A stretch of 64,000 nt of DNA from Escherichia phage vB_EcoM_PTE-Eco09 (PQ306574.1), one strand, 5' to 3'. Positions 18,955 through 27,653 are shown, numbered from the stretch's first letter. Translations and numbers: made by a program. The notes: a model not told the origin generated them from the sequence alone.

Positions 18955-19029
18955 ATGATTGTTGCAGCCGTCTTTGTGGCGGTTGCAGTAAGTTATGGTT
19001 ATGTTATGAAGAGGTTTAATAATGAGTGA
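18955..19029 (+). CDS. tiny hydrophobic leader ORF overlapping the gene 39 start
   Basis: 24 codons (MIVAAVFVAVAVSYGYVMKRFNNE); its stop overlaps ATG 19022. Confidence 0.25.
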   Translation: MIVAAVFVAVAVSYGYVMKRFNNE

Positions 19030-20845
19030 GTTTCGCATTTTATCTGATCGTGAACATGTCCTTAAGCGTGCAGGAATGTATATAGGATCAACAACTTACG
19101 AAGAACACCAACGTTTCCTGTTCGGTAAATGGACAAAAATTTCATATGTTCCAGGACTGGTTAAAATCATTGATGAGATCATCGACAACTCTGTAGACGA
19201 GGCGATTCGCACTAATTTTGAATTTGCCAATGTGATTAGCGTCGATATCCAAAACAATATTGTTACGGTAACAGACAACGGTCGCGGTATTCCTCAACAT
19301 ATGGTTACTACCCCAGAGGGCACGCAGATTCCGCAACCTGTAGCCGCATGGACACGAACAAAAGCAGGGTCTAACTTTGATGATACCAATCGATTAACGC
19401 AAGGGATGAACGGTGTGGGGTCGTCGTTGTCAAATTTCTTTAGCGATTGGTTTACTGGTGTGACCTGTGACGGAGAAACAGAAATGACCGTTCAATGTAC
19501 AAACGGTGCTGAAAATATCACATGGTCATCGAAACCATCAAAATTGAAGGGAACAAAGGTTACATTTTGTCCAGACTTCGACCACTTCGAAGGTTATATG
19601 ATGGACAACTCTGTTTTAGATATTGTTCATGATCGTCTGCAATCATTGAGCGTAATCTTTCCTAAGATCACGTTTAAGTTTAATGGTAAACGTATTGTTA
19701 GTAAGTTCAAGGATTATGCTAAACTATACAATGATGATCCGTTTGTCATTGAAGATAAAAACTTTTCACTTGCCCTAGTTCCTGCGGTCGAGGGAGAAGG
19801 TTTTAAATCAGTATCCTTTGCTAATGGTCTGTTTACCAAAAACGGGGGAACACACGTAGACTACGTGACAGATGATCTTTGTGAAGAGATTGTAAAACGA
19901 ATCAAGAAAGAACATAAGGTTGATGTTACTAAAGCTGCGGTTAAGTCTGGATTGACCTGTATTCTTATTGTTCGTGAATTGCCTAACCTTCGTTTTGATT
20001 CACAGACAAAAGAACGATTGACTAATCCAACTGGTGATATCAAGCGTCATATTGATCTTGATTTTAAAAAGCTGGCTAAAGTCATTGCGAAGAAAGAAAA
20101 CATTATCATGCCTATTATTGCTGTAGTCCTGGCACGCAAAGAGGCAGCAGATAAAGCGGCAGCGACTAAGGCAGCCAAAGCAGCGAAACGGGCTAAGGTA
20201 GCAAAACACGTTAAAGCTAACCTTATTGGAACTGACGCAGAAACTACCCTGTTTTTGACGGAAGGTGATTCCGCGATCAACTATCTGGTCTCTGTACGTG
20301 ATCCAGATTTACATGGAGGTTTCCCGTTGCGAGGCAAAACTCTTACAACGTGGGAACAACCGGAGGCAAAGATCGTTAAGAACGCCGAAATTTTTAACAT
20401 CATGGCGATCACTGGTTTGCAATTTGGTGTTGATGCATTGGAAGTTATGCAATACAAAAATATTGCGATTATGACAGACGCTGATACTGACGGGATCGGG
20501 TCTATTAAACCTAGTCTGATCTCTTTCTTTGCACGTTGGCCTGAATTGTTCGAAGATGGACGAATCCGGTTTATCAAAACACCTATTATCATTGCGGAAC
20601 CAAAGAAAGGTGATGATGTTCGATGGTATTATGACCTAGAAGATTTCGAGAACGACCGAGATAATATCAAAGGTTATAGCATTCGATATATCAAAGGGTT
20701 AGCATCTCTTACAGAATCAGATTATCATCGCGTGATCAACGATCCTGTAATGGAAATCATCACGTTACCGGAAAACTATAAAGAGCTATTCGATTTGCTC
20801 TATAGCGAAGATTCAGACCGCCGCAAAATTTGGATGCAATCATAA
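19022..20845 (+). CDS. 39: topoisomerase II large subunit (GyrB-like), fused gp39/gp60-type
   Basis: 607 aa; GHKL ATPase motifs (IDNSVDE, DNGRGIP); Toprim region continuous with no gap. Confidence 0.85.
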   Translation: MSEFRILSDREHVLKRAGMYIGSTTYEEHQRFLFGKWTKISYVPGLVKIIDEIIDNSVDEAIRTNFEFANVISVDIQNNIVTVTDNGRGIPQHMVTTPEGTQIPQPVAAWTRTKAGSNFDDTNRLTQGMNGVGSSLSNFFSDWFTGVTCDGETEMTVQCTNGAENITWSSKPSKLKGTKVTFCPDFDHFEGYMMDNSVLDIVHDRLQSLSVIFPKITFKFNGKRIVSKFKDYAKLYNDDPFVIEDKNFSLALVPAVEGEGFKSVSFANGLFTKNGGTHVDYVTDDLCEEIVKRIKKEHKVDVTKAAVKSGLTCILIVRELPNLRFDSQTKERLTNPTGDIKRHIDLDFKKLAKVIAKKENIIMPIIAVVLARKEAADKAAATKAAKAAKRAKVAKHVKANLIGTDAETTLFLTEGDSAINYLVSVRDPDLHGGFPLRGKTLTTWEQPEAKIVKNAEIFNIMAITGLQFGVDALEVMQYKNIAIMTDADTDGIGSIKPSLISFFARWPELFEDGRIRFIKTPIIIAEPKKGDDVRWYYDLEDFENDRDNIKGYSIRYIKGLASLTESDYHRVINDPVMEIITLPENYKELFDLLYSEDSDRRKIWMQS

Positions 20846-21941: not shown

Positions 21942-24056
21942 ATGAAAATGCATATTGATAATGAAGAAGTATTTGGCAGTGACCTGAGCGGTGCGGTTGA
22001 TTTTTCACTGAAAGCAAGTAGCAAGGCTTTTATGGTGCTTTCTAAGAACACTTATCAATATTGTGAGCGTGCTTGCGTCCGTGAGTATTCGTGCAATGCT
22101 ACCGACACTCACAAAGAAGCCGGAACCTTAGATCGTCCGTTTGATATTCATTTACCGACTGCAATCGAACCGTATTTCTCTGTGCGTGATTATGGTACTG
22201 GTATTCCGTCTAAGAAAGAATTAGAACAACTGTTTACGGTTTACTTTGAATCAACAAAAGACCAGACTAATGACTATATCGGGTCTTTTGGTTTAGGTGC
22301 GAAATCTGCTTATAGCTACACTGACACCTTTACAATCGTAAACTATTACAATGGTCGCGCTTATGGCTTTACGGCATTTGTGCAAAACTCTATGCCGAAA
22401 ATGGTGCAGATTTTCGACGAACCGACCTATGAAGACAATGGTCTGAAAATCACTATTCCGGTGAAAGAAAAAGATATTCAGACATGGCATCGAGAAGCGC
22501 AATTTGTACTGCGTCATTTTGGGGAACACAAACCTAATATCAATGCAATCGAAATTAATTATTTCCCTAGCTTTGATAATTATTATGTTTGTAATGGGCG
22601 TGATAACGATTCCTATGTAGTATATGCAATCATGGGTAAGATCCAGTATCCGATCCCGTATGAATATGTTCGCGGAACATGGTTAGAAGCTGTAAACCGC
22701 CAGCACCAGACCATTTACATTAATTTTGAGTTGGGTGATCTGGACCTGATGCCATCGCGTGAAGAAGTTCACTTGTCAATTGAGACTAAAGCGAACATCG
22801 AAAAACGCATTGCAGAAATCAATGAAATGATGTTGGAAAAGGTCAAAGAGAAGATCGCCAACATTAAAACAGAGCGTAAACTTGCGCAATTTATGAGCGA
22901 GTATTCATCGACTCAACGCAATATTATTAGCAAGATGGGTAAGATCGGGCAGTGGGATGATCCGGTAGCAATCTATAATAAGTTTGTGAATGCGGGTAAA
23001 GATTCGCCTAATGACGTAGAAGGTCAGGTGTATACTCTGTATCGTACTCGTCACACAATCAGTAAATTGCGCCCTGCTTTCGTTAGCAGTCAATACAACA
23101 TTACGCATTTTGTATGGATGCATAAAGAAGATATTATGTGTCTTATTGATGATACCGATAAACCGAAACTACGCGCACTGACTCTTAACGGTATGGTCCA
23201 GGAATACGGCATCAATAAAAAGGTACTGGTGTTCCGTCAGCGCAACGAAAAACATATGGAAACTTTCGAGTACATCAAACAGTATTATGATGATTCTGAA
23301 ATGACCGTGATTAAAGTTTCTGAGGCCGATGATCTGCGTGCTAAAGCAGTTAAACCGGAGAAGACCGAGCGTACACGTACACAACGTGAAGCGACTCCTA
23401 AGCTGCCTAACGTGTATATCATGGAAAAGATTGGTGACAGTTGGCATAAAACCAGCCATCACATGAAAGCGGCAGAGATTCGCGAGTTATCAGGCTTGCA
23501 CATGTTCCGCGTAGGTGATGCATTCGAAAGCCGTAGTCGTAAATCGATCCATAGTGAAAATACATTACACACGGCGCTTGACTACTTCGGGGTAACAAAG
23601 TATATTATTACTCGAAACGAGACACAAAAATATCTCGTTGACGAACAATTGGAATGTGCGCTAGAATTTGTTCGCGGTAAGCTGGCTGGTCTGGCTAAGA
23701 AGGTTAAGACCAATCATCTGGGGTATGGCGAATATCTGGGTGTGATCACTATGTTGTTTCATGACGATGAACTAGAAAGCTGTGTTCCAGAATTTATTGA
23801 CAGACTGTACGGTCGTCATTATAATAAAGAGGTTTCCAAGTTACTCCTTCGTACTCGTTGGATTATGGACGAAGAAACTAAAAAGATTTGTGATGAAAAA
23901 TTCACGGTAGCAAACGAACGAATTAAAGCAGTTTGTGCGAAGTTTAAAGAGAATAGCCCGTTACTGTATGATATTGTAGATAACTGGTATCGTATTCTGC
24001 ATAATGACAAACGCGCACAAGACTTTATGAAACTGGTTAAGAATGTTAAATTTTAA
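21942..24056 (+). CDS. rIIA: rIIA-like protein with N-terminal GHKL-type ATPase fold
   Basis: 704 aa; Bergerat-fold motifs (DYGTGIP, GSFGLGAKSAYSY); position 39 -> rIIA -> rIIB as in T4. Confidence 0.7.
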   Translation: MKMHIDNEEVFGSDLSGAVDFSLKASSKAFMVLSKNTYQYCERACVREYSCNATDTHKEAGTLDRPFDIHLPTAIEPYFSVRDYGTGIPSKKELEQLFTVYFESTKDQTNDYIGSFGLGAKSAYSYTDTFTIVNYYNGRAYGFTAFVQNSMPKMVQIFDEPTYEDNGLKITIPVKEKDIQTWHREAQFVLRHFGEHKPNINAIEINYFPSFDNYYVCNGRDNDSYVVYAIMGKIQYPIPYEYVRGTWLEAVNRQHQTIYINFELGDLDLMPSREEVHLSIETKANIEKRIAEINEMMLEKVKEKIANIKTERKLAQFMSEYSSTQRNIISKMGKIGQWDDPVAIYNKFVNAGKDSPNDVEGQVYTLYRTRHTISKLRPAFVSSQYNITHFVWMHKEDIMCLIDDTDKPKLRALTLNGMVQEYGINKKVLVFRQRNEKHMETFEYIKQYYDDSEMTVIKVSEADDLRAKAVKPEKTERTRTQREATPKLPNVYIMEKIGDSWHKTSHHMKAAEIRELSGLHMFRVGDAFESRSRKSIHSENTLHTALDYFGVTKYIITRNETQKYLVDEQLECALEFVRGKLAGLAKKVKTNHLGYGEYLGVITMLFHDDELESCVPEFIDRLYGRHYNKEVSKLLLRTRWIMDEETKKICDEKFTVANERIKAVCAKFKENSPLLYDIVDNWYRILHNDKRAQDFMKLVKNVKF

Positions 24057-24067
24057 GAGGTGATATT

Positions 24068-24199
24068 ATGACTAAACTGACCGCTATCCAGAAAGAAACA
24101 ATCCGTAAACAATACGCTCGCGGCTTGACTAAAGGCGAACTGGCACGAATCTATAATGTATCAGACCGCACAATCCGCAAGGTTGTAGAAGCAAAATAA
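24068..24199 (+). CDS. stand-alone helix-turn-helix mini-protein, paralogous to the rIIB N-terminus
   Basis: 43 aa LTAIQKETIRKQYARGLTKGELARIYNVSDRTIRKVVEAK; similar to residues about 20-60 of the downstream ORF. Confidence 0.5.
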   Translation: MTKLTAIQKETIRKQYARGLTKGELARIYNVSDRTIRKVVEAK

Positions 24200-24252
24200 T
24201 TCTGGTATACTGATGTGAATCGGGCGGCGAGAGTCGCCCAACTAATAGAGGA

Positions 24253-25254
24253 ATGAATACTATGACTAAAGCAAAAATCACCGTCTCTGACCGTAACGTT
24301 CAATGCCTGGATTCTGAAAAACAAATCAAACTGGCTAAACAGTGGGGCGAAGGTAAGTTTACTACCCGCGAAGCACTTGCGGCAGCATTTGGGGTATCTC
24401 GTCGTACTGCCTCCCGTGTATTACTGATTCAGAAAGACGCAGTAGCGGAAGGTCGCAAGGCACTAGAAAAACGTAAAGCACGCCGTAAAACCAGTAAAGG
24501 AAAAGGCGGTGAACGCGCAAAAAAGCCCGTAACTACTTCCTCAAAAATCGTAGCCATAGCCTCAACTAAGTTTATTACTATTACATGTGGTGACATTGTT
24601 TATACTGCTGATCCATCACATGTTAACTTTAAGGAAGCACTGGAAGCGATTAAACATAATGATTTCATCAAAGCTATTACGCTGATTGACATTAAGAAAG
24701 CGGTTGAAGTATATTATCACGGCGCTTTCCGTATCGAAAATGGTATTGTGTATTATCATAATATTGTTCTTGATAATAATCTGACTCGTCGAGTTGTGGA
24801 GTCGATTAAAGAGAATAAGCCATATACGCACTATCTTAACTTCTTTGAGAAGTGCAAGAAAAACCCTAGCCGTAAGGCCGTAGATCGTCTATTTGACTTC
24901 TTAGAGCACAACGACATTGAGATCGTGGAAGATGGTTGTTTCTATGCATGGAAACGTGTTGATGTTGATTATAAAGATTTCTTTACGCATACGTTTGATA
25001 ATAGCCCAGGTCGCACGGTTAAAATGAAGCGTAAAGACGTGGACCCAGATGATGATCGCACTTGCTCTAATGGCCTCCACGTTGCAGCTAAACACTATAT
25101 TCCGCACTATGGCGGTGGACGAGGCCGAATCATTAAATGTAAAGTTGATCCGCGTCACGTTGTAAGTATCCCGAAAGATTATGCGAATGCCAAAATGCGC
25201 TGTCATCGTTACTATGTGGTTGAAGATGTAACCGAAGGTTTTAGACATTACTAA
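24253..25254 (+). CDS. rIIB: rIIB protein
   Basis: 333 aa; PSRKAVDRLFDFLEHNDIEIVEDGCFYAWKRV...FDNSPGRTVKMKRKDVDPDDDRTCSNGLH matches remembered T4 rIIB. Confidence 0.8.
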   Translation: MNTMTKAKITVSDRNVQCLDSEKQIKLAKQWGEGKFTTREALAAAFGVSRRTASRVLLIQKDAVAEGRKALEKRKARRKTSKGKGGERAKKPVTTSSKIVAIASTKFITITCGDIVYTADPSHVNFKEALEAIKHNDFIKAITLIDIKKAVEVYYHGAFRIENGIVYYHNIVLDNNLTRRVVESIKENKPYTHYLNFFEKCKKNPSRKAVDRLFDFLEHNDIEIVEDGCFYAWKRVDVDYKDFFTHTFDNSPGRTVKMKRKDVDPDDDRTCSNGLHVAAKHYIPHYGGGRGRIIKCKVDPRHVVSIPKDYANAKMRCHRYYVVEDVTEGFRHY

Positions 25255-25936: not shown

Positions 25937-26299
25937 ATGCTAGGTCATTCTAAAATAGAAGATTGCTCATTCAGAGCAATGAAAGATGATTTTTCGGTCC
26001 TGTACGCGTCTATCCGAGAGTTGTTTGTAGATTTTAAGCAATTCAGAGAATACAAAGGCGTTAAGATGCGGGAGTGGGTATTCTGGCCTTTCTATATCAT
26101 TACTCTGTTTTCTATGGTATTTTGTTTTGTCGGGATCACTATCGCTAGTTTTGTCACTTGCGTTTTCCTGATTATCAGGTGTATCATGTTTGCTTTGATT
26201 GCTGCCCCGTTTATTGTGTCAATCCTTCCGTTAAAATGGCTATTGGATTGGGCTGATAAATCTGATAAAGTAAAGAATGTGATTTGTAAGCGTGTATGA
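25937..26299 (+). CDS. integral membrane protein (2-3 predicted TM helices)
   Basis: Hydrophobic stretches WVFWPFYIITLFSMVFCFVGITIASFVTCVFLII and MFALIAAPFIVSILPL. Confidence 0.5.
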   Translation: MLGHSKIEDCSFRAMKDDFSVLYASIRELFVDFKQFREYKGVKMREWVFWPFYIITLFSMVFCFVGITIASFVTCVFLIIRCIMFALIAAPFIVSILPLKWLLDWADKSDKVKNVICKRV

Positions 26300-26306
26300 G
26301 GTGAAG

Positions 26307-27653
26307 ATGAATAAATCAGTTACTTACCGCAGCCTTGAAAGCATTGTACATAATGAAGCTAAGGAATATGCGATCTATTCTGCCGAGGAACGCGGGATTC
26401 CTCAATTAGTGGATGGGCTTAAACCAGTGCAACGCTTTGTTATGGAATGTGCTTTGCAAAAGAGTAAAGGCGACCGTAAGAAATTCCGTAAGATGGCAGA
26501 TATTGGATCTGGTGTCGCTGAGTTGGGGTATCACCACGGCGAAACTAATGCCGTAGAAGCCGGATCACTCATGGCGAATACATGGAGCAATAATACTCCA
26601 CTGCTTGACGGTCAAGGTAACTTCGGATCGCGTTTAGTCCAGAAAGCAGGAGCGGCACGTTATATCTTTGCTCGTGTGCATGAAAACTTCTTTAAAATCT
26701 ATAAAGATATGAATTGCGCACCTAAGCACGAAGATCTGGAACACATCCCGCCAGCGTTCTACTTGCCAGTTGTGCCAATGGTATTGGCTAATGGTATTAG
26801 TGGTATTGCTTCAGGGTATAAAACTGACATTTTACCGCATTCACTGGAAAGCCTTATTGAATGCACAGAGCTAGCACTTGCCGGAAAACTGGATAAAGAA
26901 CCTAATGTTCAATTCCCGAAATTCACGGGTAAAGTTATCCCGCGAGATGATCGCGATGGTGTGATTCTTGAGGGTACATATGAACTAAACGGCAAGACTA
27001 AACTGACAATATCAGAAGTTCCTTATAAGTTCGACCGTGAAGAATATGTAGCGGTACTGGATGCACTGGAAGAAAAAGATCTGATTGTATCGTATAATGA
27101 CCGTTGCTCTAAGGACGGATTCAGATTTGAAGTAACACTGAAACGCGATTATTTCAAAAGCGAAGATGAATCCGCTCGACATGAGCAAATCATGAAGGAT
27201 TTTAAACTAACACAGTTAGTAGCCCAGAATATCGTAGTGGTTAATGAACGTGGTTTAGTAGAAGTATTCGAGAAAGCGAGCGATCTGATCCGTCGATTCG
27301 TCGAAATCCGATTAGGGTATGTCGATAAACGCATTGAATTGATGCAAGCGGAAACGCTGGAAGCATACAATTATGCAATGGCTAAAGCCGAATTTATCGA
27401 CCGCGTAATTAAGGGCGAAATCGAGCTACAGGGCAAGAAAAAGGCCGAGGTAATGCAATCCATCAATGGACATGAAAAACTGCGTCCATACGCCGATAAG
27501 CTAGTTTCTATGCCATTGTATAGCGTTACTCAAGAAGAGTATGATCGACTGGTCAAAGATGCCGATAAACATCATAGTGAATATGAGTATTGGACAAAGA
27601 CGACCGCAATGAAGGAATATAAGAAAGATCTTAAAGAACTTAAGAAGGGTTGA
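26307..27653 (+). CDS. 52: topoisomerase II medium subunit gp52 (GyrA-like)
   Basis: GLKPVQRF, ANTWSNNTPLLDGQGNFGSR, ARYIFARV; ATG 26307 with RBS. The track ORF begins at an upstream GTG. Confidence 0.9.
   Translation: MNKSVTYRSLESIVHNEAKEYAIYSAEERGIPQLVDGLKPVQRFVMECALQKSKGDRKKFRKMADIGSGVAELGYHHGETNAVEAGSLMANTWSNNTPLLDGQGNFGSRLVQKAGAARYIFARVHENFFKIYKDMNCAPKHEDLEHIPPAFYLPVVPMVLANGISGIASGYKTDILPHSLESLIECTELALAGKLDKEPNVQFPKFTGKVIPRDDRDGVILEGTYELNGKTKLTISEVPYKFDREEYVAVLDALEEKDLIVSYNDRCSKDGFRFEVTLKRDYFKSEDESARHEQIMKDFKLTQLVAQNIVVVNERGLVEVFEKASDLIRRFVEIRLGYVDKRIELMQAETLEAYNYAMAKAEFIDRVIKGEIELQGKKKAEVMQSINGHEKLRPYADKLVSMPLYSVTQEEYDRLVKDADKHHSEYEYWTKTTAMKEYKKDLKELKKG

Follow-up and report, generated by a model that had tools for sequence, protein, structure and literature searches.

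A conserved 43-residue helix-turn-helix gene between rIIA and rIIB of Krischvirus phages, probably a detached copy of the rIIB N-terminal module

The DNA analysed here (the window) is a stretch of 64,000 nucleotides from Escherichia phage vB_EcoM_PTE-Eco09 (PQ306574.1) and matches RB49-like phages (genus Krischvirus, family Straboviridae, T4-type) at 98-99% identity. Its gp39 topoisomerase gene (19022-20845) is followed by several small ORFs and then by rIIA (21942-24056, plus strand, 704 aa), which was taken from the ORF list, is annotated as RIIA in Krischvirus records of 99% identity and ends with a TAA stop at 24054-24056. The match of rIIA to GHKL ATPase families was weak and below threshold (HATPase_c_3, 17.7 bits), and agrees with the published GHKL domain of RIIA. 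Between rIIA and rIIB lies a mini-ORF of 43 aa (24068-24199, plus strand), which encodes a stand-alone tri-helical helix-turn-helix (HTH) and corresponds to RB49p274 and phrog_15481. It is followed by rIIB (24262-25254, plus strand, 330 aa), identified by phrog_609 (E = 3e-106) and by public annotation, and downstream of rIIB by three small ORFs and the gp52 topoisomerase gene (26292-27653). Public records label RB49p274 as "hypothetical protein" only, PHROG places it in a family of its own (phrog_15481) with function unknown, and a literature search found no paper on the Krischvirus mini-ORF.

The mini-ORF product is MTKLTAIQKETIRKQYARGLTKGELARIYNVSDRTIRKVVEAK. Its ATG stands 11 nt past the rIIA stop codon, and the Shine-Dalgarno sequence GAGGTGA (24057-24063, plus strand) abuts that stop. 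The reading frame differs from the frames of both rIIA and rIIB. The mini-ORF, its sequence, its own ribosome-binding site and its separate frame are all as the initial annotation had described them. The same annotation had argued that the mini-ORF is not a simple frameshift of rIIB, and this holds: the frames differ, and there is no frame continuity between the two genes because a stop codon at 24211-24213 closes the rIIB frame upstream. A fusion of the mini-ORF to rIIB by frameshifting or readthrough was likewise considered and rejected on the grounds of the differing frames, the stop at 24211-24213 and the lack of any conserved arrangement of that kind. The start of rIIB itself needed correction. 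It had been placed at 24253, the in-frame ATG that gives the longest rIIB ORF, but this codon directly abuts the AGAGGA Shine-Dalgarno sequence (24247-24252), whereas the ATG at 24262 is correctly spaced from it and is the start annotated in public records. With the start at 24262, 62 nt separate the mini-ORF stop from the rIIB ATG.

Several candidate expression signals surround the two genes. A perfect sigma-70 promoter-like site, TTGACA-17-TATAAT (23797-23825, plus strand; 12/12 consensus matches), lies within the 3' end of rIIA, approximately 240 nt upstream of the mini-ORF, and similar sites occur at the same relative place in three uncultured relatives (L003, L008 and L010); we regard it as a candidate promoter for the mini-ORF and rIIB. 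The spacer between the mini-ORF and rIIB carries an extended -10-like element (TGGTATACT, 24203-24211, plus strand), whose TAYAMT hexamer could be aligned in 5/5 lineages and is part of a full TTGACA-17/18-TAYAAT in L004 and L010, making it a candidate second promoter for rIIB. Farther along the spacer is a GC-rich hairpin of 7 bp with a GAGA loop (24222-24239, plus strand). A GC hairpin stands between the mini-ORF and rIIB in 5/5 lineages, with differing stem sequences and a slightly varying position; the -10-like hexamer of L004 and L010 lies inside the hairpin. The window's hairpin has no T-run, and no intrinsic terminator was found between the mini-ORF and rIIB; candidate roles for the hairpin include an RNA 3'-end or stability element, an attenuator and a promoter modulator. 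Given the sigma-70 consensus inside rIIA and the signals in the spacer, the mini-ORF is probably expressed both together with rIIA and from the internal promoter, and rIIB may have an additional promoter of its own. Under this arrangement the mini-ORF would be transcribed with rIIA and from the sigma-70-type promoter in the rIIA 3' end, its translation would start 11 nt past the rIIA stop, directed by the gene's own strong Shine-Dalgarno sequence, and the putative -10-like element and the GC hairpin would follow before rIIB.

The AlphaFold2 model of the mini-ORF product (pLDDT 87.6) has helices at residues 6-18, 22-29 and 33-41. In Foldseek searches the best PDB folds were the IstA N-terminal HTH, the DNA-binding domains of Hin and gamma-delta resolvase, and CENP-B N, with TM scores of ~0.8. 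The Pfam family CENP-B_N (PF04218) matched at 26.0 bits, above its cut-off of 21.2, while HTH_7 (18.3 bits; threshold 23.8), Mor (17.6; 24.9) and Sigma70_r4 (21.1; 24.1) remained below their gathering thresholds; the generic HTH Pfam families matched by the mini-ORF are also matched by canonical rIIB N-termini. As modelled, the mini-ORF product is a minimal three-helix HTH protein. The RIIB C-terminal domains (PF26926 / phrog_609) are absent from it, the ORF ending at residue 43, and the protein is a module of the rIIB N-terminal (rIIB-N) family and not a RIIB protein. The window's rIIB carries a diverged HTH of its own at residues 11-54 of 330 (RNVQCLD...SRVL; 24292-24423, plus strand), located by HMM, hhalign and AlphaFold2. 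In the rIIB model (overall pLDDT 85.8), the HTH helices span residues 18-29, 36-42 and 47-56 with pLDDT above 94; beyond them, a long helix and a disordered linker (79-92) lead to the C-terminal domains. A Foldseek search of full-length rIIB against the PDB returned partners for the HTH only, with no significant match for the confidently modelled body (residues ~95-330).

The claim from which this analysis started was that the mini-ORF parallels residues of approximately 20-60 of rIIB. The optimal local alignment (Smith-Waterman) pairs IRKQYARG--LTKGELARIYNVSDRTIRKVV with LAKQWGEGKFTTREALAAAFGVSRRTASRVL (rIIB residues ~26-57) and is the same one that had been noticed by eye. Its score of 40 compares with 24.2 +/- 4.4 for shuffled sequences (p ~0.007 for rIIB residues 1-80 and 0.017 for the full-length protein), and BLASTP between the mini-ORF and the rIIB of the same phage reported no HTH alignment; the pairwise match is therefore marginal when taken alone. 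The shared pattern that had been proposed, KQ(W/Y)..G..T..ELA.....VS.RT..RV, reflects this alignment faithfully except that "ELA" reads E-A-L-A in rIIB.

Comparison of both segments with rIIB homologues, the check proposed at the outset, gave a much clearer result. We collected 71 rIIB homologues in addition to T4 rIIB, and found that most T4-like rIIBs start with a module of the form M..VK.L...QK..I......G..K..LA..F.VS.RTIGRV..E. We then trained a rIIB-N HMM on 47 N-termini, those of T4 and of 46 homologues, all from outside the Krischvirus clade. The mini-ORF scored 40.4 bits on this HMM (E = 9e-12 against the window ORFs), its homologues 38.7-47.7 bits, and the attached HTH region at the N-terminus of rIIB 29 bits; of the remaining six-frame ORFs in the window (1043 in all), none scored above 9 bits. 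The scan was extended to a whole Krischvirus genome, composed of the window and the rest of a 99%-identical genome (164.8 kb, 3393 segments), and gave no further match, the next best score being 11.3 bits. The mini-ORF and rIIB thus hold the sole two modules of the family in the ~165 kb Krischvirus genome, and they are neighbours. Profile-profile comparison by hhalign aligned the mini-ORF family with canonical rIIB-N at 99.0% probability (E = 6.7e-18, 39 columns), the attached HTH with canonical rIIB-N at 97.9% (E = 3.5e-13, 43 columns), and the mini-ORF family with the attached HTH at 90.5% (E = 1.3e-6, 20 columns). Aligned jointly, the modules have invariant residues at S32 and T35 and nearly invariant ones at Q8, K9, A26, I36 and V39; the mini-ORF conforms to all of these, whereas the attached Krischvirus HTH deviates at the QK and TI positions. 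By these sequence comparisons the free and the attached HTH belong to one family. Mean identity to the canonical modules is 38% for the mini-ORF and 31% for the attached copy, the canonical modules being 39% identical among themselves, and the mini-ORF is only 28% identical to the attached HTH of its own rIIB. Of the two copies, the free one is thus closer to the canonical module.

An intact mini-ORF was present between rIIA and rIIB in all matching Krischvirus records (58/58). Its homologues are 43 aa long, except for 45 aa in L008, and share 69-98% identity with the protein of the window, and the gene stands in the same place in four divergent metagenomic lineages (L003, L004/L005, L008/L009 and L010/L011), with 4-11 nt between the rIIA stop and the ATG and a Shine-Dalgarno sequence of the GAGGTGA type. 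Over the five lineages the amino acid identity of the mini-ORF product was 73-93%, compared with 64-71% for the attached HTH (92% in the close pair L004/L011), 53-64% for rIIB and 33-45% for rIIA. Synonymous sites in the mini-ORF are near saturation (pS 0.5-0.86), with dN of 0.08-0.28 and dN/dS of 0.02-0.33. Of the proteins encoded at the locus, the mini-ORF product is the most conserved, and purifying selection on it is strong.

The junction between rIIA and rIIB is variable in other phages. In T4 the distance from the rIIA stop to the rIIB ATG is 11 nt, the same gap as for the Krischvirus mini-ORF, and in a Klebsiella phage rIIB directly follows rIIA with a gap of 0 nt. The number of fused modules at the locus is 0, 1, 2 or 3. 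An uncultured relative has a rIIB of 459 aa (L003, 4685-6064; 54% identical) with three in-frame tandem N-terminal HTH repeats (54.7, 49.9 and 39.1 bits), which together with the free mini-ORF upstream makes four modules at that locus, and a rIIB-like protein of 775 aa (P0137) has two N-terminal HTHs, an insert of several hundred residues and the rIIB C-domain. Near distant rIIBs that have no HTH, no compensating free HTH gene was found in the three loci examined. Free HTH ORFs between rIIA and rIIB have arisen independently at least twice more. In two contigs (L020, 4001-4910, and L021, 2008-2917) a 10-nt tandem duplication (CGCAAGTTAG, present twice) in the linker splits an otherwise canonical rIIB, yielding a 61-aa HTH ORF (71 bits) and a 233-aa body that starts at the conserved MIGS motif, and a protein from another, related contig (P0226) has a different frameshift at the same spot; such loci may represent functional splits or naturally occurring frameshift variants of rII. 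In a T4-like contig from a separate, deep branch (L022, 3960-5103), an 80-aa free HTH (46.6 bits) overlaps the start of a rIIB that carries its own diverged HTH (21.7 bits), repeating the Krischvirus pattern of a canonical free copy and a derived fused copy. Upstream of this free HTH is a TTGACC-17-TATAAT site with a GGGGG/CCCCC hairpin within its spacer.

Searches beyond the rII locus placed the mini-ORF within a broad HTH class. In tblastn searches outside Krischvirus, the best matches were residues 3-42 of rIIB from Klebsiella, Enterobacter, Serratia and other T4-like phages, with up to 52.5% identity over 39 aa, and the best-matching rIIBs (P0044, P0042, P0031, P0012, P0011 and P0015) belong to the clade that is sister to Krischvirus in a tree of the C-domain. 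When 1.84 billion representative proteins were searched with a profile of the mini-ORF family, 304 matches were obtained at E <= 1e-3; multi-HTH repeat proteins, small free HTH proteins and HTHs from the C-termini of HNH endonucleases ranked highest. The rIIB N-termini were not the nearest relatives in that set, a rIIB C-domain being found in only 1 of the 150 best of the 304 matches, and approximately 20 non-rIIB single domains scored 38-49 bits on the mini-ORF profile, compared with 33.5 bits for the best rIIB N-terminus. In the reverse direction, the rIIB-N HMM scored the mini-ORF's best-matching proteins at a median of 23 bits; the mini-ORF lineages (39-48 bits) fall in the top 3% of this group, but several non-rIIB proteins reach 37-41 bits, so that sequence alone cannot prove descent from rIIB. 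The matches of the mini-ORF to generic DNA-binding families in PHROG were stronger than its match to phrog_609 (RIIB), and two of the small free HTHs (P0204 and P0148) occur in contexts unrelated to rII.

Taken together, these data favour, with a probability of roughly 0.7, the interpretation that the mini-ORF is a detached copy of the rIIB HTH module, produced by duplication and fission, and a trans-acting partner of rII. The narrower statement that the mini-ORF arose locally from rIIB, at the level of the family and of the locus, is at least as probable; the case for it rests jointly on profile membership, position, adjacency and the plasticity of the junction. The initial annotation had read the mini-ORF as a duplicate of the rIIB N-terminal HTH, and the profile matches, the sole adjacent pair in the genome and the T4-like start position all bear that reading out. 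As a sequence of events, the 5'-terminal HTH module of rIIB would have been duplicated and the gene split, so that the first copy would have retained the ancestral rIIB start site just past rIIA, while the second copy would have stayed fused to the rIIB body and diverged. At 28% identity the copies are old and divergent, and the mini-ORF is therefore no recent duplicate. The DNA at the two start codons showed no visible in-register duplication. A recent tandem duplication at the DNA level was considered and found to be unsupported, the sole notable repeat being 13/14 nt (ATAYTATGACTAAA) common to the mini-ORF start (24063-24076) and the rIIB start (24257-24270), where both proteins begin MTK. 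Since this repeat is absent from relatives, chance, gene conversion or a translation signal are possible sources of it.

The principal competitor to local origin by duplication is independent acquisition, in which the mini-ORF would be a generic small phage HTH of the class KLT..Q...I...Y..G.T...LA..Y.VS..TI..V, brought in between the two rII genes as a moron-like cassette together with its hairpin, or remaining from a homing endonuclease, and its likeness to rIIB-N would reflect nothing beyond shared membership of a superfamily. Such an origin would account for the finding that the best overall matches of the mini-ORF are non-rIIB proteins, among them the C-termini of HNH proteins (P0095, P0113, P0171 and P0179) and the small free HTHs, as well as for the lead of the generic DNA-binding PHROGs over the RIIB family; an ORF followed by a hairpin also resembles a moron cassette. 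It does not readily explain why the genome's sole two modules of the family adjoin one another, why the mini-ORF starts at the ancestral rIIB position, with an 11-nt gap that leaves no room for endonuclease remnants, or why its lineages score so high on the rIIB-N HMM relative to their own best-matching proteins. The best rIIB matches, moreover, sit in the sister clade of Krischvirus, and fissions and duplications of the rIIB module are demonstrable at the same junction in other lineages. We consider independent acquisition unlikely. Far less probable still is a non-functional leftover, be it the decaying 5' part of a former rIIB or an ORF that arose by chance and is untranslated. The rII genes are dispensable in many hosts, and the L020/L021 split has the appearance of a fresh frameshift that could be a mere rII mutant, yet the Krischvirus mini-ORF is intact in every matching record, keeps its length at 43-45 aa and its strong Shine-Dalgarno sequence, has low dN/dS at saturated synonymous sites, and is better conserved over five lineages than rIIA, rIIB or the attached HTH. 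The same observations speak against the "remnant of recombination" that had been suggested for it; judged from its pattern of sequence conservation, the mini-ORF is a real gene, and a decaying remnant or chance ORF is excluded.

A further proposal concerns what the detached module does and is a functional refinement of the duplication-and-fission interpretation, not a true alternative to it. Here the free HTH would share a target, either a DNA site or a partner, with the rIIB HTH, acting as a competitive regulator or autoregulator of rII or as a decoy against host systems that sense RIIB. The mini-ORF and rIIB-N are of one module family, and the mini-ORF lies upstream of rIIB with a promoter-like site and a hairpin in between. 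In addition, RIIA and RIIB counter RexAB, and expression of RIIB triggers a bacterial gasdermin system (PMC10312443; bioRxiv 10.1101/2025.11.20.689424), which makes selection on RIIB architecture plausible. The recognition helices differ, however (DRTIRKVV in the mini-ORF and RRTASRVL in rIIB), and with an overall identity of 28% a shared target is not obvious; any link of the HTH to sensing or to Rex would be conjectural. We consider a decoy or competitor role unlikely.

Under the preferred interpretation of a detached, trans-acting rIIB module, the mini-ORF protein would bind nucleic acid, most likely DNA, through helix 3, by analogy with the HTHs of Hin and resolvase, IstA and CENP-B. It would supply in trans what the N-terminal module of rIIB gives in cis in T4 and most relatives, and would work beside the rIIA/rIIB counter-defence pair. 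The two copies may have become sub-functionalised, with the free copy retaining the canonical sequence and the fused copy being derived. The rIIB N-terminal HTH region presumably corresponds to the "B1 segment" of T4. In the Crick-Brenner experiments on that segment, and in the r1589 deletion, the first part of T4 rIIB was reportedly scrambled or deleted with retention of rIIB function on K(lambda), and such tolerance fits an accessory, separable module. A bolder generalisation, which we hold to be doubtful, is that the rIIB HTH is an autonomous trans-acting unit that has been repeatedly detached, multiplied (0-4 copies per locus) and retuned among T4-like phages, and that the Krischvirus 43-aa protein is the real carrier of the ancestral activity. 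If this were true, that activity might be, for example, that of a DNA-binding regulator or of a tether working with RIIA and RIIB in counter-defence; alternatively, the detached protein would uncouple the HTH activity from a RIIB body that is recognised by host sensors.

The rIIA and rIIB genes are among the most famous in genetics and are seen today as counter-defence factors and gasdermin triggers, and RIIB is listed among phage-specific transcription factors by Iyer and colleagues (PMC7824862). The split, multi-copy architecture of the rIIB N-terminal HTH is previously undescribed and is a modest variant of this famous locus; the result is incremental comparative genomics and reveals no new kind of system. 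A separable HTH of variable copy number, together with a highly conserved free 43-aa form in one well-sampled genus and independent splits, nevertheless amounts to a natural "domain dissection" of RIIB, and the mini-protein offers a simple handle on the role of the rIIB HTH. The analysis also puts a name to a gene that is labelled hypothetical in dozens of coliphages that are candidates for therapy.

Among known systems, the DNA-binding domains of Hin and gamma-delta resolvase, the IstA HTH and CENP-B N have in common with the mini-ORF a similar size, a three-helix fold (TM ~0.8) and a similar sequence pattern, but no recombinase or transposase context surrounds the mini-ORF, and the short length of the domain keeps the E-values of the fold matches weak. 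When isolated, the Hin domain (~52 aa) binds DNA by itself, and a free HTH of 43 aa is therefore a plausible binder. The highest single-domain scores on the mini-ORF profile belong to the C-terminal HTHs of HNH homing endonucleases and to small free phage HTHs. Unlike the endonuclease HTHs, the mini-ORF has no adjoining nuclease domain or remnant of one, the flanking DNA amounting to 11 nt upstream to the rIIA stop and 62 nt downstream to rIIB. At the rII locus itself, the closest parallels come from uncultured T4-like phages and are the free HTH ORFs between rIIA and rIIB in L020/L021 and L022 and, on RIIB, the two to three tandem HTHs of P0137 and L003. The L020/L021 case is a very recent frameshift split that has left no attached HTH, unlike Krischvirus, and the L022 free ORF, at 80 aa and overlapping rIIB, is not orthologous to the mini-ORF by sequence (16 bits on the mini-ORF profile); compared with these splits the Krischvirus mini-ORF is old, compact and highly conserved. 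A close known counterpart is the N-terminal HTH of T4-type RIIB, which shares with the mini-ORF the family (HMM 40 bits, hhalign 99%), the tri-helical fold and the position after rIIA. The mini-ORF differs from it in being unfused and in encoding, up to a stop codon of its own, a 43-aa protein separate from the RIIB body, while a second, diverged HTH remains on RIIB.
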